A DNA stretch of 64,000 bases from an uncultured bacterium (GCA_903945435.1 CAJAVM010000003.1:1352-65351), one strand, 5' to 3'; positions 36,588 to 54,337 are shown, counted from the first letter of the stretch. A program made the numbers and translations. Notes: generated by a model not told the origin, from the letters alone.

Positions 36588-36661
36588 TCGGGGATCGTCT
36601 AACGGTAGGACAACAGGTTCTGGTCCTGTTTATTGGGGTTCGAATCCCTATCCCCGAGCCA
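36588..36661 (+). tRNA. tRNA-Gln(CUG), CCA encoded
   Basis: TCGGGGATCGTCTAACGGTAGGACAACAGGTTCTGGTCCTGTTTATTGGGGTTCGAATCCCTATCCCCGAGCCA. 7 bp acceptor stem, anticodon loop UUCUGGU (anticodon CUG), T-loop GGTTCGAATCC. Confidence 0.8.
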
Positions 36662-37699: not shown

Positions 37700-37700
37700 T

Positions 37701-38381
37701 ATGACAAATAATGAATTATTTTTAGAACTTGCGAAGCCAAATAAAGATGGTGTGAGTCGCTGGGTTCCAGTTTCAGAATTTATTGGTAAATATAAAAAAC
37801 TTCAACTTGGAAATGGTGGAAGTTGGTGCCGAGCTAGTTCAAGCTTGGCAAAGAAATACATTGTCGAGTTTGATAAAAATAAAACAGCCGGTAATTCTAT
37901 TGACGGAGTTCGCTTGGCTGGTTTTAATAATAAAAAAATATTAAACCAAAATATTAGAAAAGATATAAAAGATTTTTATAAAGTACAAAACTGTGTGATG
38001 CTTGGGGTTAATGGTAAATCTGAAAATACAAAGATAGAAATAGATCACAAAGATGGTAGAAAAGAGGATCACAGACTTTCAAATTTAAAAGAACAACAAA
38101 TAACTGATTTTCAACCACTTTCAAAAGCGGCAAATGATATTAAAAGGCAAATTTGCAAAAGATGTAAGGAAACTAATAAACGTTGGAATGCAAAAAATAT
38201 TAAGGGTAATCCATTTGATTTTTATGCAGGAAATGAAAATTATTCTGAAGAATTGGGATGTAAAGGATGTTACCAATATGATCCTGTAGAATACAGGAAA
38301 GTTGTTGTTAGAAAAGTTGGTGAATTATCAGCAAAGGAAGCGGTAGATAAGGTTTTTAAAAAATTATACCCAGAAGAATAA
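37701..38381 (+). CDS. putative restriction endonuclease (HNH-like), sandwiched between two methyltransferases
   Basis: The EIDHKDGRKEDHRLSNL segment plus CKRC and CKGC cysteine pairs resemble an HNH/His-Me finger nuclease core. Its position, 1 bp after the MTase stop and 10 bp before the next MTase, supports an R-M role (inference). Confidence 0.35.
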   Translation: MTNNELFLELAKPNKDGVSRWVPVSEFIGKYKKLQLGNGGSWCRASSSLAKKYIVEFDKNKTAGNSIDGVRLAGFNNKKILNQNIRKDIKDFYKVQNCVMLGVNGKSENTKIEIDHKDGRKEDHRLSNLKEQQITDFQPLSKAANDIKRQICKRCKETNKRWNAKNIKGNPFDFYAGNENYSEELGCKGCYQYDPVEYRKVVVRKVGELSAKEAVDKVFKKLYPEE

Positions 38382-38390
38382 CAATAAAAT

Positions 38391-39455
38391 ATGAATTACA
38401 TAGGCAGTAAATTATCGTTGTTAGAGTTTTTAGAAAATTCTATAAAAAAAGTAGCTAAAAAAGACTGCAATGTTTTTTGTGACTTATTTGCTGGCACAGG
38501 TATCGTCGGATCATATTTTAAAAAGAAAGGTTTTAAAATTATAGCTAACGATATCCAGTATTACAGCTACGTTTTGAATAGACATTATATTAAAAATCAT
38601 AAACCACTTGAATTTAAAGGTTTGTTTGAATTGATTGCCACTTTGAAAAGTGAGGACATTAAAAATAGGGGAGCTATTGTTTTAGATTATTTGAATAATT
38701 TAAAAGGCAAAAAGGGATTTATTTACAATAATTATTGTTTGGGTGGGACAAAAAACAAGACTGAGCAAAGACTTTATTTTTCGGATGAAAACGGTTTACG
38801 ATGTGATGCTATAAGACAAAAAATAGAAGAATGGAATAACGGCAAAAAAATTAATGAGAATGAATATTATTTTTTATTAGCCAGCTTAGTTGAATCCATT
38901 GATAAATATGCTAACACAGCTTCTGTCTATGGAGCCTTTTTAAAGAGTCTAAAAAAATCTGCTTTAAGGCCTTTAGTTATGAGCCCTGCCGAATTAATAA
39001 TTAATGACCAAGAGCATGAAGTTTACAACGAAGATATTAATTCGGTTGTTAAAAAAATAAAGGGGGATATTTTATATCTTGATCCGCCATATAACCAAAG
39101 GCAATACGCCACGAATTATCATATATTGGAAACAATCGCTAAATATGATAGCCCTGATATTCATGGTAAAACTGGTTTAAGAGAGTATCAAAAACAGAAA
39201 TCTTCCTATTGTTCAACAAATCAGGTTAAAAAATCTTTTAAAGATTTAATCACTAATGCTGACGTTAAATATATATTTTTAAGTTACAATAATGAAGGAT
39301 TAATGAGTGCAGAAGATATAAAAGAAATAATGAGCACTAGGGGTAAATATGGATTTTTTACTCAGGAATATTCTAGATTTAAAGCAGATAAAAATAGGGA
39401 ATATAAAGCTGAAAAAACAGTAGAATATTTACATTATGTTGTCTGCAATAACTAA
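38391..39455 (+). CDS. Dam-family (D12 class) N6-adenine DNA methyltransferase
   Basis: MNYIGSKLSLL start. Motif I DLFAGTGIVGSYF. Motif IV LDPPYNQ. Confidence 0.8.
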   Translation: MNYIGSKLSLLEFLENSIKKVAKKDCNVFCDLFAGTGIVGSYFKKKGFKIIANDIQYYSYVLNRHYIKNHKPLEFKGLFELIATLKSEDIKNRGAIVLDYLNNLKGKKGFIYNNYCLGGTKNKTEQRLYFSDENGLRCDAIRQKIEEWNNGKKINENEYYFLLASLVESIDKYANTASVYGAFLKSLKKSALRPLVMSPAELIINDQEHEVYNEDINSVVKKIKGDILYLDPPYNQRQYATNYHILETIAKYDSPDIHGKTGLREYQKQKSSYCSTNQVKKSFKDLITNADVKYIFLSYNNEGLMSAEDIKEIMSTRGKYGFFTQEYSRFKADKNREYKAEKTVEYLHYVVCNN

Positions 39456-40074
39456 CCATATCGATTCGATAGCGACTTCAGCCGTGACAGCTGTATTAGT
39501 CTTTTTTATCACTAGTCGTATAGATAATAAGTTAAGAGAAAAAAATAATAAACATGAGTTTATAAGAAATCGTGAGTATGATACCCATGAAAATGTTTAT
39601 GAAGAAATTCAAAAGCTAAAAAATGACCCAGAAACAGGCTGGGCTTTTCGTTCTAGTAAAAAAGAAAAATTAGAAGAGCAAAATAATTTAAGTTTTTCTG
39701 AGTTCTGTAATGTCACCAAGAAAATTGAATTTCATAATTTAAATATTGATGGAGCTGAATCTTATATTTTAGACATTATAAAAGATAAAATTATATCTGA
39801 TATAAAAAAGTTATCTCGTCGTAGTAAAAATAAAATTCAGCAAATTTCTAAGGAAATAATTATTAAATATGAAAATGATTTTGAAGTAATTAATTCCGAG
39901 GTAGATGATTTAGTGGAGGGCTTTGGTTATTATGAAGGTAAAAAATTGTCTTTTGATGAGAGTAATTATGTTAGTTATTGTAAGACGCAAAGAGAAATAG
40001 TTCTATTAAATTATTTAGCTCCATTATTAAATAAACTTGAAATTGAACTTTCTGATTATATTAATTTAAAGTAA
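39436..40074 (+). CDS. hypothetical protein (N-terminal TM helix)
   Basis: 212 aa ORF overlapping the upstream MTase by 20 bp. No motifs recognised. Confidence 0.3.
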   Translation: MLSAITNHIDSIATSAVTAVLVFFITSRIDNKLREKNNKHEFIRNREYDTHENVYEEIQKLKNDPETGWAFRSSKKEKLEEQNNLSFSEFCNVTKKIEFHNLNIDGAESYILDIIKDKIISDIKKLSRRSKNKIQQISKEIIIKYENDFEVINSEVDDLVEGFGYYEGKKLSFDESNYVSYCKTQREIVLLNYLAPLLNKLEIELSDYINLK

Positions 40075-41413
40075 TCTTTTTTTCTCTCATAACCAGTTTA
40101 CTCTCTAAACAGCTTAATACTTCTCGCTTCTCAATAATCGACCCCTCTCTAAGCACGTATTTAGCGTAGTTTCTCATATCAACATCTTTCTGCTTATTAA
40201 AGTCTATTTCAGCTGTTCCGAGCAAGCCTTTACTGAATTTGTAGTATCTTTCAATTTCTTCATTGAATTGGTTTTTTAAGCCGATGTCATTTATATCTAG
40301 CTTATCAATTACTTGAGTTAATTGTTCAATTAATTCTTCTTCTCGAAGATAACCGCCTTTGCAGTTTATATTTTTAGCTCTAGAACATCCGTAATATACA
40401 TATCTTCTAACTGACCCATCGGCCAGTTTTTTAAATTTTTCTTCAGCCGAAATGCCTGATCCGCAATGTCCGCATTTGATAAGCTTGGTAAAGGCAAATT
40501 CCTTACAGTCTTGTCTAGAAATATTACCTCGGCTTAATTGCTCATTCGCTTTCGTATATAACTCTTTTGATATAATCGGATCGTATCCGCCTTTATACCA
40601 TTTATCGCTTCCAACTGGATATTCAAATTCGCCATAGTAGAATGGTTCTTTTATCATCCGCTGAACCATACTGATTGTCATGAACTTATTATTTTTTGTC
40701 CGCAAATCAGTTTCATCTTTTAGCCATCTATATATGCGCCGACAGCTATATTGCTCATTGGCTACTTTTTCAAATAATTGTTTTATTATTGGAGCTCTTT
40801 TAGGATCTATAAATACTTTTTTAGCGCCTTTGTCCGCATATTTATCATGTATGTATCCAATCGGCGCTCGCCCAGGACGCCAACCTTGTTCGCACTTAGC
40901 CCTTAATCCTCGTTTAACATTTTCGCCCTTATGGTCATTTTCTAATTTAGCTTGAGAACCTAGAATCATTAATAAAAATTTTTCATTAGGGCTGTTAGTA
41001 AATCTTTGGCCATGAGTTCTAATTTCTTTAATTAACCCCTGATCCATTAAATCAACCATCGCCCCTAAGTCGCCAGCATTACGGCTTAACCGATCAGGCG
41101 CCCAGCAGAGGATTCCATTAAAGATACCTCTTTTGATATCTGTAATTAATTTATTAAAAACTGGCCTCTGTCCAGAATCTTTAGCGGAATGACTTTCCTT
41201 TCTTACCTCAGTTATTTGAATATTATCCCTTATGGCCATTTCCAGCATTTCCTTTATTTGCGAGTCTATTGAAAGAGCCTGCCTTTCATCTTCTTCGGTT
41301 GATTTTCTGGCGTATAAACAGTATTTCATCTCTGTTTCTAATGCCTCTAAATTAGCCCTATTTTGGCCTCCTAGGGCTGTTTTATGCTCTAGTACCGTAG
41401 TTGCTTGGTTCAT
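40061..41413 (-). CDS. large serine recombinase (resolvase/invertase catalytic domain + recombinase domain + zinc ribbon)
   Basis: N-terminal YARKSTEEDERQALSIDSQ (the catalytic Ser context of the resolvase family). Zinc-ribbon cysteines CGHCGSG...YVYYGC. 450 aa. Confidence 0.85.
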   Translation of the reverse strand: MNQATTVLEHKTALGGQNRANLEALETEMKYCLYARKSTEEDERQALSIDSQIKEMLEMAIRDNIQITEVRKESHSAKDSGQRPVFNKLITDIKRGIFNGILCWAPDRLSRNAGDLGAMVDLMDQGLIKEIRTHGQRFTNSPNEKFLLMILGSQAKLENDHKGENVKRGLRAKCEQGWRPGRAPIGYIHDKYADKGAKKVFIDPKRAPIIKQLFEKVANEQYSCRRIYRWLKDETDLRTKNNKFMTISMVQRMIKEPFYYGEFEYPVGSDKWYKGGYDPIISKELYTKANEQLSRGNISRQDCKEFAFTKLIKCGHCGSGISAEEKFKKLADGSVRRYVYYGCSRAKNINCKGGYLREEELIEQLTQVIDKLDINDIGLKNQFNEEIERYYKFSKGLLGTAEIDFNKQKDVDMRNYAKYVLREGSIIEKREVLSCLESKLVMREKKITLN

Positions 41414-41520
41414 ATGGTTATAGTTGTTATAACCAATTAATGACGCTATTAAACAGGGAAGTCTAGGCCTAGCTGTTGGTAACTTAACTTTACTTTTTGG
41501 CTATTTCAAGTTATATTTTA

Positions 41521-41684
41521 AGTGCAAAACCACAAGTTAATATCGTGAAGCACGCGCCAATTTTTTTGGTAGCCTTGGCTTATTCGTATACAGGAACGGG
41601 CATTCCGACCTAATACGAGTAAGCGTCTTCACGGACACTTCTTGTGGTTTTGCAACCAAGGTCGGGTGTCCGTTTTTGTTTTTA
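41521..41684 (+). other. large imperfect inverted-repeat / candidate structured RNA with alternative terminator hairpin
   Basis: Stem A is gcaaaaccacaag(41523-35)/cttgtggttttgc(41640-52). Stem B is cgtgaag(41543-49)/cttcacg(41626-32). Stem C is gcttattcgta(41577-87)/tacgagtaagc(41613-23) with a U-G pair. The tip hairpin is ggaa-cgggca-ttcc. A competing hairpin cggacac(41631-37)/gtgtccg(41665-71) is followed by tttttgttttt. Confidence 0.3.
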
Positions 41685-41724
41685 TAAAGCGGACATTAGA
41701 TATTTATAAATTAATTATAAATTT

Positions 41725-42030
41725 ATGAAAAAATGTCCGTTTTGCGCCGAAGAAATACAAGACGATGCTAAAAAATGCCGTCATTGCGGAGAATATCTTG
41801 ATAAAGATAATAAAATTAAGGTAAGTAAGCATTCTGATTATGCTACGGTCACAATTATTTCCGCCATATTGCCCGTTATAGGCATTATTTTAGGAATTGT
41901 TTATCTCACTAAAAATAGCAAGGCAGATAAAAAATTAGGCGAACACGCAATTGTTGGCAGTATTTTATTTAGTATATTGTGGTTTCTAATTTTGTTAGTA
42001 TTAGGAATCCCTAATTTTATAGTTATTTAA
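41725..42030 (+). CDS. zinc-ribbon domain membrane protein
   Basis: N-terminal CPFC...CRHC zinc ribbon followed by two TM helices. 101 aa. Confidence 0.55.
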   Translation: MKKCPFCAEEIQDDAKKCRHCGEYLDKDNKIKVSKHSDYATVTIISAILPVIGIILGIVYLTKNSKADKKLGEHAIVGSILFSILWFLILLVLGIPNFIVI

Positions 42031-42066
42031 TATTAGTTTTATTAGCAGTCAGCTAATTATAAATTT

Positions 42067-42477
42067 ATGAAAAAATGTCCATTTTGTGCAGAAGAAATTC
42101 AAGATGACGCAAAAAAATGCCGTCATTGCGGGGAGTATCTTGATAAGGGTAATGTTTCTAATAAAATCAACAAAGACGGTAGATTTGATGGATTCATTGA
42201 TTTCTTAAAACGAAAATATCCCGCTTATTCCGTCGTGTCTGAAAATTATGAAAAAAATTATATAGTGCTTAACAAACAGTTAAGCGGTTTAAATCCTTTG
42301 CTGTTTATTATATTACTTCTTCTTTGGATTCTGCCAGGCGTTATATATCTTATCGTGTCTTTAAGTAGTAAAAAAATATTATCATTGACCATACAATTTA
42401 ATGAAAACAATGAGCCAGTTTCTGTTAGCGACGCGAATTTCAATTTTTTAATTGTTAAATATAAAGAGAATAATTAA
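42067..42477 (+). CDS. zinc-ribbon domain membrane protein (tandem paralog of 41725..42030)
   Basis: The first 27 aa (MKKCPFCAEEIQDDAKKCRHCGEYLDK) are identical to the upstream gene, as are 15 nt of 5' leader. A TM helix follows. Confidence 0.55.
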   Translation: MKKCPFCAEEIQDDAKKCRHCGEYLDKGNVSNKINKDGRFDGFIDFLKRKYPAYSVVSENYEKNYIVLNKQLSGLNPLLFIILLLLWILPGVIYLIVSLSSKKILSLTIQFNENNEPVSVSDANFNFLIVKYKENN

Positions 42478-42488
42478 TAGTGAGTAAT

Positions 42489-43949
42489 TTATCTCATCCC
42501 GTAGTACTCTTTATTGTGTTCCCAAATTCCAAAAGATGCAGGCCTTCTTTTATCTAAAATAATTTCATTTATCAGTAGGGTAAAAGCATCGACGAGATCA
42601 TCGTGTTTTTCTATGCCGAAGCCGACCATTTGACTTATTAATTCTTCAGCGCCATTTTTAGGAAATAGTATTCTTCCTGATTTTATTAAATATGTTGTCA
42701 TACTTAGCCTAGACAATTTATCATATCCGCCAATTTTAACGCCTTTGCTCGGGTACCCATCGCTTTTTAATTGCTGGGTGAAGGCACTTTGATAAGCCAC
42801 TTCTTCAACTAATATTTCTATTGGCTTGCCTCCTCCTATAACACTTGATGATAGTTTAATGTTCTCTATTGCTTCGGGAAATTCCATCCTTTTATTTATT
42901 AAATTGGGCAAAATATAAATTTTCATATCTTTGTCATATCCATACACCCTTGCACTTACCGCCGCCGTATAATCTGCGGTGGTTTTTGTTGATATAGCTA
43001 AATCAACGCCCATTTTTTCATAGCGATAATTATCTGGCGGAAGGGAATCATAGTACTGTAGCCATTCTTCACGGACAACTTGATCTTCGGCTGGTAATAT
43101 CTTCAGCATGAATTCTCGGTTGAAAGTGACCGCATCATAAGTATTTTTTAAATCTTCAATACTCTCATAAGTCGGGTATCTGCTAGGCCAGAGAACAACC
43201 CCATCTTCATTTATAAGCGGGTATGCTTTATAAACACCACCTCTGATTTTATTATCATTTATTTTTGCTTCCAGTCTTTTAATAACTGAGTCTTGGTGTA
43301 AGAGATTTCCAATTACAACAACAACTGTGTTCATATCTCCAGCTGGCAAAACTTCGCCCATTAGCCAATTAAATGATTTATCCCGCCCCTCCTTAGTTTT
43401 AACTGATTGAAGGTCTTCAATATCGTCGACAACAATTAAGTCTGGGCGGTATTGATTGTGTCTGGTTCCTCTAACGCTCTGTTCGACTGAAGCAGTTGCT
43501 ATTCTGGCATTGAATTTTGTCAGCACTAAAGTTTGTGAACCCCATTGATTAGGTTCTTCTTTGAATGGTCCCAGATCGCCTTTAAGTAATTGATTCTTTT
43601 CTAATTCACTCTTTATGCTTTGGAGCATGGTTTGTGCCTTTGCTTGGGTCTGGCTGATAAGAAGAACGTATTTCTTTTCAAGCTTACCCATAATCGCCCA
43701 GAGAGGATAAGAAAGACCCATGATAGTTGATTTGGCTGATCCTCTAAAAGCAACCACAACCATCATCTTATTTTTTGTGTCTTCAGTCAGACTAAACATT
43801 TCTCTTTGAAACATTGCTGTTTCCACTGTCACATAATGATTCATGTAAAGATAGAAAAACCAGTAATGACTTTCCTTAACAGTGGCCAAGCGAACCAGCC
43901 TATCGGTTAACAATTTATTAATTATTTTTTCAGTCGTTAGCTTTTTCAT
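42489..43949 (-). CDS. phage terminase large subunit
   Basis: Walker A-like VAFRGSAKST. Walker B LIVVDDIED. C-terminal RNase-H-like nuclease motifs (EKMGVDLAISTK ... GIEKHDDLVDAF). Confidence 0.7.
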   Translation of the reverse strand: MKKLTTEKIINKLLTDRLVRLATVKESHYWFFYLYMNHYVTVETAMFQREMFSLTEDTKNKMMVVVAFRGSAKSTIMGLSYPLWAIMGKLEKKYVLLISQTQAKAQTMLQSIKSELEKNQLLKGDLGPFKEEPNQWGSQTLVLTKFNARIATASVEQSVRGTRHNQYRPDLIVVDDIEDLQSVKTKEGRDKSFNWLMGEVLPAGDMNTVVVVIGNLLHQDSVIKRLEAKINDNKIRGGVYKAYPLINEDGVVLWPSRYPTYESIEDLKNTYDAVTFNREFMLKILPAEDQVVREEWLQYYDSLPPDNYRYEKMGVDLAISTKTTADYTAAVSARVYGYDKDMKIYILPNLINKRMEFPEAIENIKLSSSVIGGGKPIEILVEEVAYQSAFTQQLKSDGYPSKGVKIGGYDKLSRLSMTTYLIKSGRILFPKNGAEELISQMVGFGIEKHDDLVDAFTLLINEIILDKRRPASFGIWEHNKEYYGMR

Positions 43950-44344
43950 ATATTTTTATCAAGAGCTGCTAGTTTGAGTGCTTGCTTTACGGCTTGTTTC
44001 TGCTCTTTAGTTAATTCAAGAGTATGTTCAATTTTTCCTTTTAACTCCAGTTTGTCAGCATAAACAGGGTGATTATTTCTTAACCAAAAAAAGATAGCTT
44101 GCATGCTTTTATCCTTGATGCCTGATATCAGCTGTGATTCGGCGATGTCATTTATAAATAAGCGCCCCTCAAGGAAAGCTTTATCAACTTGCTCGGAAAA
44201 CTTTTTATCTTCCTTTTTCCAGCGATAGAAGGTTGTTCTGCCAATGCCGTTTTTTTCACAAACCAGCTGGATAATAGGAGTTTTTCTCAAGCCCTCAATT
44301 ATCAGTGCCTTGCCACTATTTTTTGCTTTTGTTTCTTTGTCCAT
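43946..44344 (-). CDS. putative phage terminase small subunit (HTH)
   Basis: 132 aa. HTH segment GIGRTTFYRWKK. It overlaps the terL start by 4 bp. The call rests on position and domain inference. Confidence 0.45.
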   Translation of the reverse strand: MDKETKAKNSGKALIIEGLRKTPIIQLVCEKNGIGRTTFYRWKKEDKKFSEQVDKAFLEGRLFINDIAESQLISGIKDKSMQAIFFWLRNNHPVYADKLELKGKIEHTLELTKEQKQAVKQALKLAALDKNI

Positions 44345-44349
44345 ATTAT

Positions 44350-45201
44350 TTAATTTAATTTTTTAGCTTTTAATCCAGTTAACTTTTCAAATCTTTCTAT
44401 AATTGTCTGGCAATATTCTGGATCTAGTTCTATCATTAAGCATTTTCTTTTTGTTTGTTCGCAACTGAGTAAAGTCGTTCCCGATCCCCCAAAGGGATCA
44501 TATACATAATCACCTATCTTAGAACTGTTTAATATCAGTTGACGCATTAATGATAAAGGTTTTTGCGTAGGATGACTTTTGCTACTACTCGGTTTAGGAC
44601 AGAAGATTACACTCTTGTCTTTTGACTTAGTAAATAGATGTGTGCCGAACCATGAAAAAATTATGAGCTCGTGCTGAGGCAGATAATCTTTGCGCCCAAC
44701 TACGGCCTGATTTTTTACCCAAATTAGAAGTTGTGAAAAATGGATACCTATTTCATCCATTGCTTGTTTTAAAGCAAATAGCATGATGTCGCTATTAAAA
44801 ATGTAGATGGAATTTTTCTTATCCAGAAAGGGAAGTGCTAATGAAAGCCAACTTTTGGTAAATGTTTTATATTCATCATTGCTTTGAATCTGGTCATTAG
44901 CAATTTCTTTTGGCTTACTTAATTTTTGGGCAAATCCCGCTTTTGATTGGCAATACGCGCAACCATATGGTGGGTCGCAAGCAATTAGCCTGATTATGTC
45001 TTGGCCGATAAGTTTTGTAACGCTTTCTTGATCGCAGGCGTCTGAGCACATCAGCCTATGATTTCCCAGCTGATAAATTTCACCTGTCTTAATTAAGTTT
45101 TTTAGCTTTTGTGTTTGCATATTTTTCATAGCGATTAATAATAAGTTGGCAGAAAATTGGATTGATTTCCGCCGTGTAACATATTCTGTTAAGCTGTTCA
45201 C
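44350..45201 (-). CDS. phage-type DNA methyltransferase (beta-class N6A/N4C; DPPY then DPFGGSGTT)
   Basis: Motif IV CDPPYG precedes motif I DPFGGSGTT. The called start is a GTG at 45201 that overlaps the upstream gene by 113 bp. The ATG at 45129 or 45120 is more likely the true start. Confidence 0.7.
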   Translation of the reverse strand: MNSLTEYVTRRKSIQFSANLLLIAMKNMQTQKLKNLIKTGEIYQLGNHRLMCSDACDQESVTKLIGQDIIRLIACDPPYGCAYCQSKAGFAQKLSKPKEIANDQIQSNDEYKTFTKSWLSLALPFLDKKNSIYIFNSDIMLFALKQAMDEIGIHFSQLLIWVKNQAVVGRKDYLPQHELIIFSWFGTHLFTKSKDKSVIFCPKPSSSKSHPTQKPLSLMRQLILNSSKIGDYVYDPFGGSGTTLLSCEQTKRKCLMIELDPEYCQTIIERFEKLTGLKAKKLN

Positions 45202-46363
45202 ACGCTAGAAGAGTCGACCCCGATCCAGCGTAGATGTCTAATATAATATCGCCAGGCTTAGAACAGCGTTTTAAAGGCTTCTCGTGGAGATTTAAAGGTT
45301 TTTGTGCCGAGTGTTCGTAGTTTGATCCAATATCTCTTTTAGCTAGCCAGATATCTAAAATATCAATTATATTATCTATTGCCCTATTGCCTGATTCTAT
45401 TTCTTTGTTTAAAGCTTCACAGGCTTTAGTTGATAGTTTGGATAGGAACGGCTTGCCAGTTTTTCCGTATATACAAAATTCGGTCGCCTTATTAAATGCG
45501 ACATTAGGCGTAGGATTGAACGCACCCTTGAACCAGAAGCAGGCTCTTTCGTTCTTTATGCTTAGTTCTCGGTATAGAGTTTGGATTAACCAGATATTTG
45601 ATTGATCGCACCAAGTGAAGTAATGGCAATTTTCCTTTGCGTGTTTTAAAGAATTTTTTAGTCCAGCTAATAGAAATTTTTTATATTCATCATCGGTTTT
45701 ATTATCTTTAATATCTCCGCCGTAATTTGAACGATTACCGACCCCTTTATCATAATTTAGCCCAATATTAAAAATTGGATCATTATAGATTAGGTCGGCT
45801 TTGTTTTCTCCAAGTAATTTGTCCAGTGTTTCTGTTTTGTGGCTATCTCCACAAATCAAAAAGTGCTTGCCTAGCTGGAAGATGTCACCTAACTTTATGT
45901 CAGTCTTATTTATTTTCTGCAATTCCTTTTCTTCATTAAAATTATCATTCTCAATTTCAATGTCATTATCAAAAACCTGAAGTAAATCATCTTCATTTAA
46001 TCCAGATTCAAGTAAGATATCTAAATCTATTTCCTTGAGAAGCGAATAATTCCATGATCCATGATTAGAGTTGCTTCGAAGTAAATATTCCTTGAATTCT
46101 TTTTCATCTAGCTGACGGTTAGGAACTCTAACGTCTATTTCTTCTTCGCCTCTGTCCAGTAATTGCAAAACACGGATTCTTTGATGGCCAGCTAGAATCT
46201 GACCGCTTATTGTTATGGCAGGTATCTCGGCGAGATTGAATTTTTTAATACTGGCTTTAAGATCACTTAATTGTTTATCCGACATGATGCGCGGATTTTT
46301 TTCGTAGGGAAGCAGGTCGTTGACTTTCCGCTTCTCTGTGTGCCAAATGATTTGTTTGGTCAT
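45089..46363 (-). CDS. ParB-like nuclease domain fused to DNA methyltransferase
   Basis: N-terminal ParB-N motif (ILAGHQRIRVL). C-terminal MTase motifs NDPIF and DIYAGSGSTLLACEQ. The C-terminus is paralogous to the downstream MTase (...NRYEKYANTKAKKLN versus ...ERFEKLTGLKAKKLN). Confidence 0.7.
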   Translation of the reverse strand: MTKQIIWHTEKRKVNDLLPYEKNPRIMSDKQLSDLKASIKKFNLAEIPAITISGQILAGHQRIRVLQLLDRGEEEIDVRVPNRQLDEKEFKEYLLRSNSNHGSWNYSLLKEIDLDILLESGLNEDDLLQVFDNDIEIENDNFNEEKELQKINKTDIKLGDIFQLGKHFLICGDSHKTETLDKLLGENKADLIYNDPIFNIGLNYDKGVGNRSNYGGDIKDNKTDDEYKKFLLAGLKNSLKHAKENCHYFTWCDQSNIWLIQTLYRELSIKNERACFWFKGAFNPTPNVAFNKATEFCIYGKTGKPFLSKLSTKACEALNKEIESGNRAIDNIIDILDIWLAKRDIGSNYEHSAQKPLNLHEKPLKRCSKPGDIILDIYAGSGSTLLACEQLNRICYTAEINPIFCQLIINRYEKYANTKAKKLN

Positions 46364-46487
46364 AATTTTTTTGTTAATAAATTATGTCTTAATTGTATGA
46401 GTTATCTGAGGGGCAGGACATTACACTTTGTGTAAACAAAAAAAATCGCTATTTTTTAGCGATTTTTAGGAACTATTTTGTATTAAA

Positions 46488-47243
46488 TTATAATTTTTTT
46501 AGATTATTTAGAGCATCTTTATACCTTTTTCTATAAATTGCTACCTCACTGTATCCCAAGGCAACTCGGTTTTTACCGTATTTATCGTTTAATTCTTTGG
46601 AAATTTTTTTATCCCCCTTTTTTATTTTAGTTAAATCCCAGGTATCTTTGGCTACGGTTTGAGGCTTCTTAACTTTGTTATTTTTTCCATCTTTTATTAT
46701 CTCGGTTATTTTTTTACATGCCATAGCTATATCTCGGCTGGTTGTGTGAGGAAAAATTTCTAGATATATTTTTCCCGGGGTAAAAGTGTACTTATTTATT
46801 TCTGGGTTTTCGTTAGCAATAATAATTCGTGTTCCAGGAATCTTCTTTCTGGTAAGCCCAGATTTTAGTTTTATTCCTTCTTTTGAAAATTCAGGCAATA
46901 AGTAAGTAATTAGATTTTTATTTATTATATAATCAGCTGTAAAAAATACACAGTTAGAAATTAGATTATTCGGTATTTTAAATTTACTTATTAGTTTTTT
47001 TGAATTCAAAAATAAGATTCTGTGATTCTTGCTATTTGCATGTTCCCAATCAAAAGACAGTTGGTTATTATTAAAGCCTTCTTTTGGAATATTAAGATTG
47101 GTTCTTATCCTCCCAACTTCTTTAATAAAGAAAGGATGGTCTAATAACAAGGAATAAAGCCATGACTCATCTCTAGATAAATCATCTCCGTTTGGAAAAG
47201 TGTATATATTGCTATTTTCTATTTTTTGGTTATTTATACTCAT
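46488..47243 (-). CDS. hypothetical protein (first gene of the leftward MTase/terminase operon)
   Basis: 251 aa ORF with no recognised motifs. Basic C-terminal region. Confidence 0.3.
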   Translation of the reverse strand: MSINNQKIENSNIYTFPNGDDLSRDESWLYSLLLDHPFFIKEVGRIRTNLNIPKEGFNNNQLSFDWEHANSKNHRILFLNSKKLISKFKIPNNLISNCVFFTADYIINKNLITYLLPEFSKEGIKLKSGLTRKKIPGTRIIIANENPEINKYTFTPGKIYLEIFPHTTSRDIAMACKKITEIIKDGKNNKVKKPQTVAKDTWDLTKIKKGDKKISKELNDKYGKNRVALGYSEVAIYRKRYKDALNNLKKL

Positions 47244-47280
47244 ATATTGTTATTTTATCATTATTAGCCATTTTTAGGTA

Positions 47281-47315
47281 GTTTACTATGATTTATTAAT
47301 ATAATATTAGTAAAC
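47281..47315. promoter_or_regulatory. inverted repeat gtttacta-N19-tagtaaac in divergent promoter region (candidate operator)
   Basis: Perfect 8 bp arms at 47281-47288 and 47308-47315. They lie between the divergent 46488..47243 (-) and 47355..50231 (+) genes. A candidate -10 TATAAT lies at 47379-47384. Confidence 0.3.
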
Positions 47316-47354
47316 GAGATAGCTTAACCTTAGCAAAAAATACCTTGATTTTGC

Positions 47355-50231
47355 TTGTTTTTAGGAGTAAAGTCTAAATATAATTATAAAAGAAGCAAAA
47401 ATATGATTCAACAAAAATTTCCAAGAGGCTCGGAGTGGAGAAAATGGGATTTGCACGTGCATACTCCAGCTTCATTTTTTTGGGTAGGAGGCAAAAAATT
47501 AAAGGATTTATCTGATGAAATTAAGGAAGGCCATGTTGAATCAGAAAAAGATGAAGAAATAAAAAAATTCATAAAAGCCGTTAATGAATCGGACGTAGCA
47601 GTTTTTTGTATAATGGATTATTGGACGTTTGATTGGTATATAGAGCTAAAAAAATATTTACTAAGGCACCCAGGAGAATTGAACAAAACCATTTTTCCTG
47701 GTATGGAGTTGCGTGTTGAATGCCCAGTTGACTATAGACTCAATATTCATTTTATTTTGTCAGATAAATTAACTGAACAGAATTTAAATGATTTTAAGTC
47801 AGAATTAATGATAAGATCAGTTAACAGAAAATTGTCGGAGGAGGCCTTAATTGCTTCTGCAAAAATGCTAGACGCCAGTAAGGCTGCGGTGCATGGATAT
47901 GGAGACCCGTCTGTTTTGTCCGATGAAAAGTTATTAGAATTAGGTTCTAAAACGGTAGAAATAACAAAAGATTCTTTAAATACAGCATTAAAAAATATTC
48001 CGCCAGAGTCAGGCTATATTATTTTACCATATGATACCTCCGATGGACTTATTGATTTGGATTGGAAAACTCATCCACACGATGATAATTATTTCATGCA
48101 AACGGCTAGTATTATTGAAACTAGAAAAGCGGATAATGTAGATTTGTTCAATTGTTTGAAAACTGAAGCAAATAAAGATTTTTTTATTAATTTTAGTAAG
48201 ACTATTAAAAATACACCAAAACCATGTGTTTCTGGAAGTGATGCCCATGAGTATAAAAATTATGGAAAATATCCATCTGATAAAATTACATGGGTTAAGG
48301 CTGACCCAACATTTGAAGGTTTAAAACAAATAATATATGAGCCAGTAGATAGGGTTAAAATTCAAGAGTCTAGACCGGAAGAAAAAGATGATTACCAAGT
48401 TATAGATAAAATAAATTTTATAGACAATAAGTTTTTGCCAGACGATATATTAATAAATGAAAACTTAACAACGATTATCGGAGGTAAGTCTACTGGAAAG
48501 TCAGTTTTATTAAGAAATATAGCTAAAACTATTGACCCCGAAGAAGTTAAAACAAGACTTGGAGAGGTTGGCTTATCTGAATACGAAAAAGATGTAGAAG
48601 GATTCAAGGTTATTTGGAAAGATGGGCAGGAAAATGTTAAAAATGAAGATAAAGGAGTTAGAAAAAAAATTATTTATATACCGCAATCATATCTCAACAG
48701 ACTGGTAGATAAAAAAGAAGATAAAACATCTATAGACGAAATAATCAGAAATGTTCTACAACAGGATGATGAGGTAAGCAAAGCATTTGAGGAATTGAAA
48801 GAGTTTGAAAGAAATAATGAAAAAGAAATTTCTAAAAATGTGGATGATCTTTTTTACTCCAAAAAAGATTTTGCTGAACAATCTGAACTTATCAAAAATA
48901 TTGGCGACAAAAGGGGTATTTCTGAACAAATAAAAAGATTAGAGGTAGAAATTAAGGATTTGAAGGAAAAGGCTGGCATGACCCCCGATCAGATTTCTAA
49001 TTATAATTTATTAACGGAGAAAATAGGCAAAATAAAAAAGGAGAAGGAAGTAATTAACAACGATTTAATTTATTTAGATGCATTATCAAAAACAGATCCA
49101 TTCTTATTTATAGACTTTGAAGGGATTTCGTTGGAAATTAAAAATGGAATTTCCACTGATTTTGATAAATTAAAAATGGAATTTATTATTTCATGGCAGG
49201 CTCGTATTAGTGTAAGTGTAGGCAAACTTAACGAGGATTTAATCACAAAGGAATTAGAATTAATATCGGCTACAGATGAGTTAAATCCGTTATTAGAAAA
49301 AGCTAGAGAGAGTCGTGCATTAAATGAAAAAATTTCTAGATTAGATGGCGAAAAAAGTAAACTTAACACAATAGAAAAAGAAGAGTTGAAGCTAGAAAAA
49401 ATTAGACAAAATTATTTTAAATCGTTGTCTAATATGTCCGAATTGCACTTGGAATTTTATAATAAATATTTTGACAGTAGGGCTAAAATATTGAAACAGA
49501 CTATCATAGATGGAGAGATAACTTTTGATTTAAACGTTTCTTTCAGAAGTTTGTATTTTCAGAAAAATATTAATGAAATATTTGACCAAAGAAAATTGTC
49601 TAAATTTACCGATGTTAATATATTAGATTATTCATATTCTGATAATATTAATTTAAAACAGGACATAAGCAAAGTTATTTCTGGAATTTTATCTGAAAAG
49701 TTAGTCTTGAAAAGTGGCTATTCAAAAAAGGATGCAATAAATAAGATGTTACAGAATTGGTTTTCTTTAGATTATGCTATTAAGCAGAATGATGACGATA
49801 TTTCACAGATGTCTCCAGGAAAGAAGTCATTTGTTTTATTGAAATTATTAATAGAGCTTGATAAAAGCAAGTGCCCTATATTGTTAGACCAGCCAGAAGA
49901 CGATTTGGATAACAGATCTATATATAATGATTTAGTTAGGTTTATAAAAGATAAGAAGAAAGGAAGGCAAATTATTATAGCAACGCATAATCCGAATTTG
50001 GTTATTGGTGCGGATGCTGAAAATATTATTGTTGCCAACCAAAGTGGTGAAAAGACCCCAAACAAAACTTTTCAATTTGAGTATGTCACAGGCTCTATTG
50101 AGGATTCTTTTGAAAATAGTGGAGAAACAGCAATTTTATATCAGAAAGGTATTCAAGAACACGCCTGTGATATATTAGAAGGCGGTGAAGATGCCTTTAA
50201 GAAGCGAAAGCGACAATATAGTTTTAATTAA
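47355..50231 (+). CDS. PHP-domain phosphoesterase fused to ABC/Rad50-like (AAA_15/AAA_21-type) coiled-coil ATPase; Ppl-like
   Basis: PHP motifs WDLHVHTP, GMELRV and SGSDAHEY. Walker A IIGGKSTGKS. A coiled-coil of about 250 aa. A signature-like MSPGKKS, Walker B ILLDQPEDD and the H-loop IIATHNP. The called start is TTG at 47355. The ATG at 47403 (MIQQKFPRGSEWRKWDLHVHTP) is more likely the true start. Confidence 0.7.
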   Translation: MFLGVKSKYNYKRSKNMIQQKFPRGSEWRKWDLHVHTPASFFWVGGKKLKDLSDEIKEGHVESEKDEEIKKFIKAVNESDVAVFCIMDYWTFDWYIELKKYLLRHPGELNKTIFPGMELRVECPVDYRLNIHFILSDKLTEQNLNDFKSELMIRSVNRKLSEEALIASAKMLDASKAAVHGYGDPSVLSDEKLLELGSKTVEITKDSLNTALKNIPPESGYIILPYDTSDGLIDLDWKTHPHDDNYFMQTASIIETRKADNVDLFNCLKTEANKDFFINFSKTIKNTPKPCVSGSDAHEYKNYGKYPSDKITWVKADPTFEGLKQIIYEPVDRVKIQESRPEEKDDYQVIDKINFIDNKFLPDDILINENLTTIIGGKSTGKSVLLRNIAKTIDPEEVKTRLGEVGLSEYEKDVEGFKVIWKDGQENVKNEDKGVRKKIIYIPQSYLNRLVDKKEDKTSIDEIIRNVLQQDDEVSKAFEELKEFERNNEKEISKNVDDLFYSKKDFAEQSELIKNIGDKRGISEQIKRLEVEIKDLKEKAGMTPDQISNYNLLTEKIGKIKKEKEVINNDLIYLDALSKTDPFLFIDFEGISLEIKNGISTDFDKLKMEFIISWQARISVSVGKLNEDLITKELELISATDELNPLLEKARESRALNEKISRLDGEKSKLNTIEKEELKLEKIRQNYFKSLSNMSELHLEFYNKYFDSRAKILKQTIIDGEITFDLNVSFRSLYFQKNINEIFDQRKLSKFTDVNILDYSYSDNINLKQDISKVISGILSEKLVLKSGYSKKDAINKMLQNWFSLDYAIKQNDDDISQMSPGKKSFVLLKLLIELDKSKCPILLDQPEDDLDNRSIYNDLVRFIKDKKKGRQIIIATHNPNLVIGADAENIIVANQSGEKTPNKTFQFEYVTGSIEDSFENSGETAILYQKGIQEHACDILEGGEDAFKKRKRQYSFN

Positions 50232-50256
50232 TTTATAAATTGGCAAAATTAATAGT

Positions 50257-51012
50257 ATGTTTAATATTCAAAATATTATAAATTTTATACCAATTGCTGT
50301 AATTATTTCAGCTATTGTTTTTTTAGTAAAATTCTTTGGAAAAGCGAGCACCGATCAGGTTCCGTTTGCTGATAATAGATCTTGGCATGAAGAATTATTT
50401 GGAATTGAATTTTTTGCCACCAGACTTGCATCTCCTTTAATATTCATATTTATTTTATATTCACGTCACTGGAATCCGCTGAAATTTACATCGGATGATT
50501 TATGGCTTTTTATTTTTGGAATTATTTCGGTAGTCATGCTTAACTTAGCTTCAAAAAATGCATTTAAATTTTTTAAAGATGATAACTTTGACGACGGGAA
50601 TCTTTTATCACTTTTAAAAAAGTTATATAAAAATAAAAATGATGAAAAGTTTGAACAAGGAGAAAATTTGTTAATTCTAAAACACCTTGTTTTCCCAGTA
50701 GTCGCTTATTTTATGATGGTGATGCTCATTCTTTTTTATGAATGGGGATCTTATTACCATTTATTAATTGCAATAATTTATTTCTTATTTTTTCTCTTAT
50801 CGTTTGCCCTTTTATTATCATTAAAAAAACGGAATATATTAAAGGCTAATATAAAATTTATCAACAATGAGGAAGAAGAAATAAAAGATTGCAGGGTCTT
50901 AAGGATAAATGAAGATAATATCAAAGTTAAAATTACAAATAATAAAGTTATAATTTTAAATAAGTCCACTGTTTCGAGGATAGAATTTGTTAATAATAAT
51001 TTGGAAAACTAA
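50257..51012 (+). CDS. polytopic membrane protein (4-5 TM) with C-terminal soluble domain
   Basis: Hydrophobic helices (IPIAVIISAIVFLV; LIFIFILY; LWLFIFGIISVVML; VFPVVAYFMMVMLILF; LLIAIIYFLFFLLSFALLL). It starts 25 bp after the PHP-ATPase stop. Confidence 0.45.
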   Translation: MFNIQNIINFIPIAVIISAIVFLVKFFGKASTDQVPFADNRSWHEELFGIEFFATRLASPLIFIFILYSRHWNPLKFTSDDLWLFIFGIISVVMLNLASKNAFKFFKDDNFDDGNLLSLLKKLYKNKNDEKFEQGENLLILKHLVFPVVAYFMMVMLILFYEWGSYYHLLIAIIYFLFFLLSFALLLSLKKRNILKANIKFINNEEEEIKDCRVLRINEDNIKVKITNNKVIILNKSTVSRIEFVNNNLEN

Positions 51013-51571
51013 ATTTATGGGCATAGCTTATAAAAATTTTTGGAGTTTAAATACCGACGAAGCCGTTGTGGCTGGTATTTTAAGAAATGCCACCAGCAAA
51101 GATGTGGAAGTGTTAATGCCGTTAAATGCCCAAATGAAAGGAGTCGATCTTTACCTGTTAAATATTAAGACTAAAAATATTATAACTATTCAAGTAAAGG
51201 GAAGCAGGGCGTATGAACCACAGAAGGCTGAAGTCAAAAAATATGGTGACGGTTCAGGCGGTTGGTTTTTCTTTCCAAAAGAAGTAGTAACTAATGCGAC
51301 AGCAGATTTTTTCTGTTTTTTGATTTACATACTTGAAGAAAACGGAAAAACAGGAAGAAGAATTATTACGCCACATACATTAATGATCCCGACGCAAGTT
51401 TTAAAAGAAAAAAGTTTAAAATATAAAAAAACCCATGGGGATGGCCGCTTTAGTTATAAGATTTGGGTTAACCCATCAGACAAAAAGGCTTTTGATTTTA
51501 GAGATGAAAAAATTGATTTCGATGATTTTTTGGATAAAAAAGGTTTTGCTGTGATTAATAAAGAATTATAA
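50987..51571 (+). CDS. hypothetical protein, possible PD-(D/E)xK (restriction-endonuclease-like) fold
   Basis: E...D...QVK pattern (DVEV ... GVDLYLLN ... IQVKG). The true start is probably the ATG at 51017 (MGIAYKN). Inference only. Confidence 0.3.
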   Translation: MLIIIWKTKFMGIAYKNFWSLNTDEAVVAGILRNATSKDVEVLMPLNAQMKGVDLYLLNIKTKNIITIQVKGSRAYEPQKAEVKKYGDGSGGWFFFPKEVVTNATADFFCFLIYILEENGKTGRRIITPHTLMIPTQVLKEKSLKYKKTHGDGRFSYKIWVNPSDKKAFDFRDEKIDFDDFLDKKGFAVINKEL

Positions 51572-51585
51572 ATATTTTTCTTGGT

Positions 51586-52719: not shown

Positions 52720-52723
52720 AAAA

Positions 52724-53716: not shown

Positions 53717-53750
53717 AAATACCGCCTTCGACCTAGGCGGTATTTTGTAT
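53716..53750. terminator. strong bidirectional rho-independent terminator
   Basis: Perfect 11 bp stem aaaataccgcc/ggcggtatttt with loop ttcgaccta. Confidence 0.55.
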
Positions 53751-54154: not shown

Positions 54155-54337
54155 ACCCACTAAATACCCGACCGACTGCCGTTATTTCGCCCCAATATAT
54201 ATCTTCAAAAAACCTTTGAAAATTGCTATATCCTTGGTTCTAGACAGACACGGGGAGCTAAATAAAAAACTGCGTACTATAATGGTATGCAGTTTTTTAT
54301 TTGATCAAATAATTTTAAGGTTTATTGTAATTTACTA

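Follow-up and report, generated by a model that had tools for sequence, protein, structure and literature searches.

A mobile element of about 14.2 kb, bounded by homology with its relatives at about 40059-54260 of the window (the whole 64,000-nucleotide stretch of DNA that was analysed), encodes both subunits of a terminase and a serine recombinase and no portal, capsid or tail protein, and is probably a phage satellite. We hold with high confidence that this mobile element is conserved and functional rather than a remnant, and it is apparently of an undescribed type, since no published description of the cassette was found. The reading favoured here, to which we give a probability of about 0.5, is that the element derives from the packaging module of a phage, captured together with an integrase, and behaves as a helper-dependent satellite; the capsid-hijacking step taken by itself stands at even odds or slightly below. 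A satellite lifestyle had been proposed in the initial annotation, and it is the best available reading, though an inferred one: no excised form, helper phage or replication gene was found.

Five minus-strand ORFs (called with a simple script, code 11) occupy positions 42489-47243, as had been annotated, and encode a 251-aa protein (up1), a ParB-MTase, a second methyltransferase (MTase), TerS and TerL. The 4-bp overlap claimed for TerS and TerL is borne out by the ORF coordinates (43946-43949), and the claimed absence of head and tail genes holds across the 64 kb, in which no ORF matched a portal, capsid or tail family in Pfam or PHROGs. The description of these genes as a leftward operon stands as regards gene set and strand, but a terminator-like hairpin at 46467-46441, which separates the ParB-MTase gene from that of the 251-aa protein, means that the operon may be two transcription units; nor is position 42489 the end of the unit, which includes the large serine recombinase (40061-41413). 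The ParB-MTase is a beta-class N6/N4 DNA methyltransferase joined to a ParB-like N-terminal domain, which PHROGs alone detects (phrog_620, E 3.8e-19), while the MTase is a second N6/N4 DNA methyltransferase which has no ParB domain and is found in about half of the cassette family. In public gene calls the MTase start is placed at about 45129, giving 259 aa. A sigma-70-like promoter match lies about 140 bp upstream of up1, at the edge of a backbone segment common to three relatives (L016, L176 and L178). The remainder of the window is chromosomal housekeeping sequence (ParAB, DnaE, MnmA, FtsW, L25, RF1, LysRS, GreA and RNase P RNA), and the presumed CPR host is supported by near-identical proteins named Candidatus Buchananbacteria.

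Features of the element, listed from its left (upstream) end in minus-strand order
Feature	Coordinates	Strand	Remarks
Left (upstream) end, motif GCTCCCCGTGTCTGTCTAGAACC	54236..54258	-	homology to relatives begins abruptly
HTH_17 gene (excisionase/AlpA-type helix-turn-helix), 69 aa	53825..54034	-	Pfam PF12728
Four cargo ORFs, 251, 194, 377 and 330 aa	50257..53716	+	strand opposite to cassette
Variable slot 1: 958-aa Ppl-like ABC/SMC-type ATPase	47355..50231	+	Pfam AAA_21/SMC_N; PADLOC Ppl E 1.4e-18
Sigma-70-like promoter match, TTGAAT-17-TATAAT	47383..47411	-	10/12, best match; consensus match only
up1, 251 aa	46488..47243	-	no Pfam, PHROG or PADLOC match
Terminator-like hairpin + T-run	46441..46467	-	between up1 and ParB-MTase; pattern match only
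ParB-MTase, 424 aa, core gene	45089..46363	-	N6_N4_Mtase E 5e-23
MTase, 283 aa from GTG start	44350..45201	-	N6_N4_Mtase E 5e-34
TerS, 132 aa, core gene	43946..44344	-	HTH then long helix
TerL, 486 aa, core gene	42489..43949	-	phrog_38 E 8.8e-75; Pfam Terminase_6C E 1.6e-6
Variable slot 2: two paralogous Zn-ribbon membrane proteins, 101 + 136 aa	41725..42477	+	between TerL and recombinase
Large serine recombinase, 450 aa, core gene	40061..41413	-	Resolvase, Recombinase, Zn_ribbon_recom domains

In different genomic contexts the element ends sharply. Its left end, mapped by blastn and by aligning the window with three relatives (L176, L177 and L178), is marked by a motif which occurs once in the window, directly after a host terminator-like hairpin, and which in the relatives is preceded by three different outer flanks. 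Homology with the relatives stops at the stop codon of the recombinase, so that the right-hand boundary falls at about 40028-40061. Unrelated outer flanks beyond sharp ends are seen when the window is compared with L176 and L178, and again between two further loci (L037 and L049). The sharp ends and a recombinase with all three of its domains together make up an integration/excision module. Between the ends the element runs, on the minus strand, from the left-end motif through HTH_17, a defence-gene slot, the variable up1, ParB-MTase, MTase, TerS, TerL and a small cargo slot to the large serine recombinase.

The HTH_17 gene, which has a mad1-like PADLOC match (E 1e-8), sits in the most conserved backbone segment (53712-54269, 94-95% nucleotide identity to relatives by blastn), and its product is a candidate regulator or directionality factor. 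Only the 251-aa member of the four cargo ORFs (50278-51005) is common to relatives, at 85% nucleotide identity; the 377-aa cargo protein is HEPN-like (PDC-M34B). Slot 1, which in the window holds the Ppl-like ATPase (whose PHP N-terminal domain is assumed and was found by no search), is occupied in relatives by an AAA_13 ATPase (L176) or by Hachiman HamA and HamB (L178), and slot 2 holds between none and seven genes across the family, often of restriction-modification, Sie-like or XRE type. The up1 protein has only nine homologues, evolves fast (dN/dS 0.23 and dN 0.35 against L016) and is exchanged between otherwise near-identical cassettes, as in the mosaic contig L007; other family members have unrelated genes at its position. 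It is homologous to protein cluster c48 (hhalign, 95% probability), and its AlphaFold model is unusable (pLDDT 59).

The cassette is widespread. At least 553 GTDB species genomes encode a TerL of this type, those with credible labels being Patescibacteria, and the TerS family comprises at least 881 clusters at 50% identity. Related loci were examined in 84 cases, from GTDB genomes and IMG/VR, over 10 kb on each side of TerL. Only four families recur in the 80 GTDB loci, namely the methyltransferase (74), TerS (78), TerL (78) and the serine recombinase (57), always in this order, and the next largest cluster is present in 22 of the 80. The recombinase gene lies downstream of TerL on the same strand in the 57 GTDB loci, following it by 15-120 bp in all but one of 28 loci and otherwise standing after one to seven cargo genes. 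The variable slots between the recurring genes contain defence genes, and cassettes are also found in multiple or tandem copies. A search of the related elements for structural modules returned none within 10 kb of TerL in the 84 loci: like a satellite, the element has no virion genes of its own, either in the window or among the 144 ORFs downstream of TerL, where no head or tail family was matched by at least three members and the matches were instead to restriction-modification, PglX, HKD+Snf2, Sie-like and XRE families.

The initial annotation had also raised the possibility that the TerL motifs are degenerate, in which case the gene would be a pseudogene. All of the ATPase and nuclease motifs were found to be intact in the window copy, including Walker A (FRGSAKST), Walker B (RPDLIVVDDIED) and the acidic residues of the RNase H-like nuclease (D316, E382, D451 and D454), and the patterns FRGS[AG]KST and RPDLIxxDDxED together with the four acidic residues are invariant in 24 of 24 TerL sequences. 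On its Walker A motif, its Walker B motif with catalytic Glu and its nuclease residues, TerL is predicted to be a functional enzyme. The identity of TerS is less evident from sequence comparison, which gives matches to five TerS PHROGs at E 3.5e-6 to 8e-4 and a Pfam HTH_Tnp_1_2 match below the cut-off, and is backed by position and by conservation in 78 of the 80 related GTDB loci; the AlphaFold model (pLDDT 84.9) has as its best fold matches the small terminases of the Sf6 gp1 and phBC6A51 type. Homology, motifs and modelled fold suggest that the element possesses, in an intact TerS and TerL, the means of packaging its own DNA; a pac site was not identified. Strong purifying selection acts on the genes of the cassette: dN/dS is 0.03 for TerL, 0.015 for TerS, 0.07 for MTase and 0.04 for ParB-MTase, and 0.01-0.14 for MTase, TerS, TerL and recombinase over eight close pairs. 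Distances between TerL sequences correlate with those between TerS sequences (rho 0.45) and between recombinases (rho 0.37).

The TerL phylogeny proposed in the initial annotation, run here against phage terminases, separates the cassette sequences from those of real phages: in a neighbour-joining tree, computed with no bootstrap, the cassette TerLs form one clade which is sister to a clade of phages bearing portal and capsid genes. IMG/VR matches with at least 45% identity (L096-L105 and L140), and one with 37% identity in its best segment (L130), carry the same cassette, while matches at 31-42% (tier B: L106-L129 and L141) are phages wherever their contigs reach past TerL, which is there followed by a portal gene (phrog_2662, E 3e-107) and then by protease and HK97-type capsid genes. 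A full-length ParB-MTase stands upstream of TerL in some of these phages. No phage with a cassette-clade TerL (at least 45% identity) was present among the best IMG/VR matches, and no relationship could be detected between the TerS of the cassette and the gene which occupies the TerS position in the sister phages.

As a satellite, the element would be excised by its recombinase on induction; TerS would then recognise the element's own DNA, and TerL would cut this DNA and pump it into procapsids of a co-infecting phage, for which it would need to dock on a foreign portal. The methylases would protect or mark the packaged DNA, the recombinase would integrate the element in the next cell, and the defence cargo would pay for its upkeep. 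The satellite reading does not account for multiplication after excision, because no primase, helicase or Rep family was detected in the core with Pfam or PHROGs; the element may rely on the replication of a helper or of the host. The integrated form is present at one site in all 13-15 contigs of the strain, and none of the contigs shows an excised circle or a terminal repeat; searches for circle junctions also found none, the JGI set being uninformative since the element itself is absent there. A monomer of 6-14 kb is far below a normal headful, which counts against the satellite reading. Should packaging begin on a template that is chromosomal or replicates poorly, the small CPR genomes might also undergo lateral transduction at high frequency. 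It is accordingly proposed, with less assurance than the satellite reading itself, that the cassette represents a new class of satellite, the first for CPR, which combines a terminase holoenzyme, methylases and a serine integrase, has no capsid, portal or replication genes, and preys on CPR phages across the phylum, possibly driving lateral transduction and the spread of defence genes.

Two other readings are both unlikely. The cassette could serve packaging in a prophage split over several loci, or in a system resembling a gene-transfer agent, with capsid, portal and tail genes elsewhere in the genome of about 1 Mb, and supply terminase for particles made by the cell. Gene-transfer agents that are already known, RcGTA for example, have their genes spread over several loci, and the strong purifying selection and phylum-wide conservation would fit a domesticated function; TerL identity is also higher within host lineages (0.60-0.64) than between them (0.51). 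On the other side, the tight linkage with a serine recombinase, sharp boundaries in unrelated contexts, slots for cargo and copies that are multiple or in tandem resemble a mobile element more than a fixed host locus, and no structural gene occurs in the 64 kb window or within 10 kb of TerL in the 84 loci. The second reading, equally unlikely, takes the terminase to have become a defence module on an island which a recombinase mobilises and which is not itself encapsidated; TerS and TerL would either spoil packaging by invading phages, whose DNA they would cut or mis-package, or act like an ATP-dependent restriction enzyme from which the linked methylases shield self DNA. A methylase is indeed linked to the nuclease-translocase in 74 of 80 loci, the element both carries defence genes and sits among them, and neither a replication gene nor a circular form was found. 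However, PADLOC matches only the cargo genes and none of TerL, TerS and the 251-aa protein, the adjacency of ParB-MTase and TerL is inherited from ordinary phages in which it serves packaging, and the cassette retains a dedicated TerS and every packaging ATPase motif, as a working motor needs.

Less likely again is that the element acts in situ as an engine of lateral transduction, with packaging starting at its own pac site in the chromosome and filling helper capsids with adjacent host DNA, so that it would mainly drive the transfer of chromosomal genes. This would agree with the lack of a replication module, with a size that is small relative to a headful, with the integrated state of all observed copies, and with the position of TerS, TerL, cargo and recombinase, all of which are downstream if packaging runs in the direction presumed; the argument is purely inferential, and element sequence upstream of pac would be left behind, which fits badly with the conserved sharp left end. 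The decaying remnant of an ordinary prophage that has lost its head and tail genes, which had been offered as the alternative to a satellite, is refuted, in spite of the phage-type genes that lack structural partners and a TerL clade sister to real phages, because the catalytic motifs do not vary, dN/dS values lie at 0.01-0.14, 84 loci spread over many CPR lineages share the truncated architecture, the window copy has no pseudogenes and none of the best IMG/VR matches is a phage whose TerL falls in the cassette clade.

Very few mobile elements or phages have been characterised in CPR/Patescibacteria, and it has been stated to be unknown whether nested parasitism of the satellite type reaches the viruses of CPR bacteria (10.1101/2025.02.15.638363). 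The cassette offers an easily recognised four-gene signature of ParB-MTase, TerS, TerL and serine recombinase. As a satellite it would be of an undescribed design, with its own TerL and neither portal nor capsid; it would provide a handle for finding CPR helper phages, and it would account for the movement of restriction-modification, Hachiman and Ppl-type genes between reduced genomes. A domesticated packaging or defence device would be equally new. Twelve of the 80 IMG/VR matches listed are cassettes, and since virus-detection pipelines file such loci as viral contigs, counts of CPR prophages may be inflated.

The known systems which the element most resembles are phage satellites. PICIs and SaPIs are likewise integrated, have no capsid or tail genes, redirect packaging with a small terminase of their own, and carry accessory or defence cargo within roughly 6-15 kb. 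Most PICIs have tyrosine integrases, and PICIs also encode a repressor/derepression module, an origin and the primase-replicase that goes with it, and borrow TerL from the helper, whereas the cassette has a serine recombinase, its own TerL, a ParB-MTase (74 of 80 loci) and no detectable replication gene. Identity with a PICI or SaPI, which would call for a tyrosine integrase, a divergent repressor pair, pri-rep with ori, and TerS in the absence of TerL, was considered and set aside on the serine recombinase, the lack of pri-rep and the presence of TerL. P4-like satellites and PICMIs are also small, integrated and helper-dependent; P4-like elements contain hotspots in which defence systems are carried, and PICMIs, elements of about 6 kb, can be packaged as multimers (cited in 10.1101/2025.02.15.638363). 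Both differ from the cassette in having tyrosine integrases, AlpA/Fis or primase modules, no known TerL and hosts among the Proteobacteria. We know of no described satellite that has its own TerL but no portal. The cf-PICIs are a satellite type with both TerS and TerL, and are reported to encode capsid, protease, portal and head-tail connectors as well and to steal only tails (bioRxiv 10.1101/2022.09.08.507074). Identity with a cf-PICI was rejected as well, the capsid, protease, portal and connector families all being undetected in the element.

The PLEs of Vibrio cholerae are reported to integrate and excise by a large serine recombinase, to have no structural genes and to act in phage defence (PMC6002521). 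The cassette shares with them the large serine recombinase and the missing structural genes, and has no sequence relation to them beyond the recombinase class. PLEs are not known to have terminase genes, use the packaging motor of ICP1, encode a replication initiator of their own and are known from a single species. The temperate phages TP901-1 and SPbeta have recombinases of the same class, which are the closest solved structures to that of the cassette, but they are complete phages with structural modules, and their integrase does not directly follow TerL. The tier B phages of IMG/VR differ from the cassette in the portal(+MuF), protease and HK97-type capsid genes that follow TerL, in having no serine recombinase beside it, and in the unrelated gene at the TerS position, but with TerLs 31-42% identical to that of the cassette, placed in its sister clade and in some cases directly preceded by a ParB-MTase, they are its closest relatives among real phages.

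The terminase operon of the window belongs to a conserved, selected and mobile unit of phage origin, which has no structural genes and carries defence cargo. The five minus-strand ORFs lie exactly where the initial annotation had placed them, the overlap of 4 bp that it described between the small (TerS) and large (TerL) terminase genes is present at 43946-43949, and both methyltransferases upstream of TerS are N6_N4 DNA methylases, the first with a ParB-like domain at its N-terminus (phrog_620, E 3.8e-19). The 251-aa ORF upstream of them, up1, has no family match. The sequence matches of the 132-aa TerS to small terminases are weak (best PHROG E 3.5e-6; Pfam HTH_Tnp_1_2 under the cut-off), and a PDB sequence search with its profile returned no match; the best PDB matches of its AlphaFold model (pLDDT 84.9, 60 homologues as input) are a phBC6A51 protein and the Sf6 gp1 small terminase, and in a viral structure library the model matches named small terminases and homeodomain proteins of the phBC6A51 type. 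The reported absence of head and tail genes also held, since Pfam and PHROG searches of essentially all ORFs of at least 90 aa in the window turned up neither portal nor capsid nor tail genes; housekeeping genes of the chromosome make up the left 36 kb and right 10 kb. The label Candidatus Buchananbacteria, borne by near-identical proteins and by a TerL locus of 99% identity, supports the assignment to a CPR host.

The location given for the operon was correct, but its extent was not: the large serine recombinase beyond TerL also belongs to the unit, which is larger than reported. A pair of paralogous ORFs for Zn-ribbon membrane proteins, on the opposite strand, lies between TerL and the recombinase. 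These two genes form a tandem duplication (41712-41811 and 42054-42153); the copies show 89% identity over their first 100 nt, which take in the ribosome-binding region, and diverge in their C-terminal parts.

Features of the element and its surroundings (window coordinates)
Feature	Position	Strand	Details
RNase P RNA, bacterial class A	10137-10526	+	Rfam RF00010, 205.8 bits; between two ORFs; ordinary host gene
tRNA-Gln	36588-36661		3.4 kb from element right end
IceA-type restriction-modification system	36893-39455	+	N6_N4 methyltransferase (268 aa), IceA-family endonuclease (PF05315, E 1.7e-119), D12 (Dam-like) methyltransferase
Large serine recombinase	40061-41413	-	Resolvase, Recombinase and Zn_ribbon_recom domains; just past TerL
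Backbone segment, serine recombinase	41789-40059		83-94% nucleotide identity
TerL	42489-43949	-	486 aa; phrog_38 E 8.8e-75, Pfam Terminase_6C
Backbone segment, up1 through TerL	47385-42519		83-84% nucleotide identity
Ppl-like ABC-type ATPase	47355-50231	+	958 aa; PADLOC Ppl matches C-terminal part only
Backbone segment, 251-aa cargo ORF	51005-50278		85% nucleotide identity; common to L176 and L177 only
HEPN protein	51586-52719	+	377 aa; PDC-M34B E 9e-11, weak HEPN_Swt1
Backbone segment, HTH_17 gene and element end	54269-53712		94-95% nucleotide identity

The limits of the unit emerge from comparison with three related contigs (L176, L177 and L178), which were obtained via homologues of the up1 protein and have four backbone segments in common with the window, separated by variable slots. 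The slot adjoining up1 holds the Ppl-like ATPase in the window (PADLOC E 1.4e-18), an AAA_13 ATPase in L176 and Hachiman HamA and HamB in L178; a PHP N-terminal domain, which had been assumed for the Ppl-like protein, was detected by none of the searches. Together with the HEPN protein and three ORFs without assigned function, this ATPase makes up a defence-type arm of the element. Beyond the outer segments the flanks of the window, L176 and L178 are unrelated: the window has a polysaccharide deacetylase on one side and the IceA-type system with tRNA-Gln on the other, L176 has a hemerythrin and an Eco57I-like methylase, and L178 has a third left flank and, on the right, a LexA-methylase fusion. 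This unusual fusion, a 475-aa protein encoded directly after the recombinase (L178 15192-16619, plus strand), combines LexA_DNA_bind, Peptidase_S24 and N6_N4/D12 methylase domains in precomputed Pfam annotation.

The left end is sharp, beginning at GCTCCCCGTGTCTGTCTAGAACC (54236-54258) with a motif that opens with GCTCCCCGTGTCTG…, immediately preceded in both the window and L176 by a host terminator-like hairpin; the L177 and L178 contigs begin 26 nt ahead of this motif. At the right end, homology with relatives ceases at the recombinase stop codon, where the 3' end reads …GATTACTTTAAATTAA. Independent metagenome assemblies break nearby, one at the equivalent of 40028, one at 53844 and two at 54073 and 54087, which fits, without proving, presence/absence or flank heterogeneity in populations. 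Because of the sharp left end, the stop in homology and the nearby assembly breaks, the element is placed at about 40059-54260, a predicted length of roughly 14.2 kb. The IceA-type system and the 212-aa ORF of no assigned function that follows its D12 methyltransferase (39436-40074) were considered as parts of the element and rejected, being common to no relative and lying beyond the point where homology ends; since no relative has the system, it is probably a separate islet between tRNA-Gln and the right end.

Searches for signs of excision were negative. Terminal direct repeats, which would mark circular contigs, were absent from all 175 loci; an excised-circle junction (recombinase 3' end, gap of 15-70 nt, left backbone) and the left-end motif itself each had 0 matches in IMG/VR, and the 0 junction matches in JGI metagenomes are uninformative because even the recombinase 3' end by itself has no match there. 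Comparison of the left with the right end for inverted or direct repeats, in the window element and in three relatives (L037, L049 and L018), gave only AT-rich matches at chance level, no tRNA-derived repeat occurs at the element ends despite the nearby tRNA-Gln, and no empty site was found, identical copies of the HTH_17, TerL and deacetylase proteins lying in the same integrated context on every contig. The highly conserved left-end segment gave only Rfam noise and a folding z of -0.48 in a search for structured RNA. By sequence comparison the left arm is specific to the window's subfamily, because phmmer found HTH_17 homologues in no other cassette locus.

The core of the element, a cassette of methyltransferase, TerS, TerL and recombinase, recurs in many CPR genomes, so that the search for related elements makes the window element a member of a phylum-wide family. 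A search with TerL at E <= 1e-10 gives more than 2855 homologues; identity is about 50-55% for the best of them, and the contigs of many, 0.1-1.2 Mb long, bear the names Patescibacteria, Kuenenbacteria or Berkelbacteria; TerS has 881 clusters at 50% identity and E <= 1e-10. A pattern and tblastn scan in which each GTDB species was represented by one genome confirmed at least 553 relatives, of which the best 80 were analyzed, with lineages including Buchanan-, Kuenen-, Dojka-, Berkel-, Woese-, Yanofsky-, Moran-, Colwell-, Falkow-, Magasanik-, Levy-, Peri-, Peregrini- and Gracilibacteria, Saccharimonadia and WWE3. Typical CPR cassettes also occur on fifteen contigs with non-CPR names (Gammaproteobacteria, Bdellovibrionales, Flavobacteriaceae, Methanoregula), some of them “TPA_asm” records and probably mislabelled or mis-binned MAGs; such labels are distrusted because, for example, L061 and L067 are syntenic and 90% identical yet carry the labels Saccharibacteria and Paceibacterota, respectively, which is a warning for taxonomic summaries of cassettes. 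IMG/VR files twelve cassettes as “viral” contigs.

ORFs within 10 kb each side of TerL were called with a simple script of our own (code 11; some CPR lineages use code 25) and clustered by blastp. Only four clusters are widespread in the 80 loci, namely methyltransferase (74), TerS (78), TerL (78) and serine recombinase (57), and the gene order is always methyltransferase, in some loci a second methyltransferase, TerS, TerL and then a same-strand recombinase, which directly adjoins TerL in 28 loci (at 15-120 bp in all but one) and otherwise follows 1-7 cargo genes. A set of 144 ORFs downstream of TerL includes XRE regulators, Sie-like exclusion proteins, SNF2 helicases, PglX, HKD+Snf2 and type I, II, IIG and III restriction-modification genes, and no head or tail family was matched by three or more of its members. 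The fifth-largest cluster is LexA (22/80); a LexA gene with S24 peptidase and DNA-binding domains lies no more than four genes upstream of the methyltransferase, mostly divergently, in 19 of 84 loci, which could mean that the element inserts there preferentially or that the cassette is under SOS control, and in 17 loci neither a Cheo-type box nor a recurrent palindrome common to the divergent lexA and the cassette was found. Directly after TerL, on the opposite strand, about ten loci have a 70-aa XRE-type HTH gene (PADLOC “control protein”; HTH_3 E 9e-16), a possible element repressor of which the window element has no copy. Four loci have tandem TerL paralogues that are 56-64% identical (L058 9902-13024, L072 8375-11413, L097 3035-6318, L140 3668-6812); Walker A is kept in both copies, and one L097 copy has no Walker B by the strict pattern.

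The up1 position is variable. It holds a same-strand gene in 57/84 loci, from many unrelated families, only one of which (c48; hhalign 95%) is homologous to the window up1, and up1 itself has only nine homologues and evolves fast (dN 0.35, dN/dS 0.23 against the related locus L016). It is also swapped between cassettes, as in contig L007, where a window-type core (98.5% identical) is joined to an L016-type up1 with a breakpoint near 46535 at the 3' end of up1 (L007 1-103; L016 7313-7441). A sigma-70-like promoter match (47411-47383) precedes up1 and a terminator-like hairpin (46467-46441) follows it. A structure model was set aside (pLDDT 59); our guess is that up1 is a variable regulator or sensor.

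The initial annotation allowed for degenerate TerL motifs, and these were not observed: across 24 diverse TerLs there is no change in Walker A (FRGS[AG]KST), in Walker B (RPDLIxxDDxED) or in the acidic residues of the nuclease. In eight closely related pairs, the methylases, TerS, TerL and the recombinase have dN/dS ratios of 0.01-0.14 (0.03 for TerL and 0.015 for TerS between the window and L016), and pairwise TerL distances are correlated with TerS distances (rho 0.45) and recombinase distances (rho 0.37), neither value being reached in any of 300 permutations. The invariant motifs, low dN/dS and correlated distances together lead to the rejection of the remnant prophage proposed as an alternative.

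The phage ancestry of the cassette is apparent in IMG/VR. TerL matches of at least 45% identity (L096-L105, L140), together with L130 at 37%, are the same cassette, whereas those of 31-42% (L106-L129, L141) are real phages where the contigs continue beyond TerL, with a portal that carries a fused MuF-like domain (phrog_2662, E 3e-107), then a protease and an HK97-type capsid protein. Several of these phages have a full-length ParB-methyltransferase upstream, up to 40% identical to that of the window; no relationship is detectable between cassette TerS and the gene at their TerS position. Matches of about 25-30% belong to other phages, in most of which TerL is followed by a large ORF; this group also takes in L133 (39%) and L147 (30%), which lie outside the numeric bands. 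In a neighbour-joining tree of 153 TerLs, the phylogeny called for in the initial annotation, all cassette TerLs except one long-branch sequence form one clade, whose sister position to the 31-42% phages is indicative, the tree having no bootstrap and very short internal branches. TerL identity is 0.60-0.64 within host lineages and 0.51 between them. The simplest reading of these sequences is that a phage ParB-methyltransferase and terminase module was captured once by or with a serine recombinase and then radiated within CPR.

We infer that the element spreads in a helper-dependent manner. The recombinase would excise and integrate it, with the HTH_17 or up1 protein as a candidate directionality factor or regulator; TerS and TerL would package its DNA into the procapsids of a co-infecting phage, for which the sister-clade phages are the obvious candidates; and the orphan methylases would shield the DNA once it reaches a new host or label the site of packaging, a use of methylation with a precedent in phage P1, whose pac cleavage is controlled by Dam methylation. 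Three rivals retain some weight because no replication gene was found in the element, its size is far below headful, we know of no satellite that has its own TerL and no portal, and the searches found evidence of neither a circle nor particles. The cassette could be a split prophage or gene-transfer-agent locus, which we consider improbable, or, just as doubtfully, a terminase-derived defence device, a reading against which it counts that the core proteins match no PADLOC defence model. An in-situ lateral-transduction engine is less probable than either.

The reach of the cassette across the whole superphylum and its unusual gene set make it of high interest. No description of it was found in the open-access literature, where absence is not proof, and satellites of CPR viruses have been stated to be unknown (10.1101/2025.02.15.638363). 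Among known systems, the element would work most like a satellite of the PICI or PLE type. It differs from PICIs in having TerL and in having neither a tyrosine integrase nor pri-rep, and from cf-PICIs in having no capsid or portal genes; it appears to be a phage-derived, integrative, satellite-like element with an unusual gene set.
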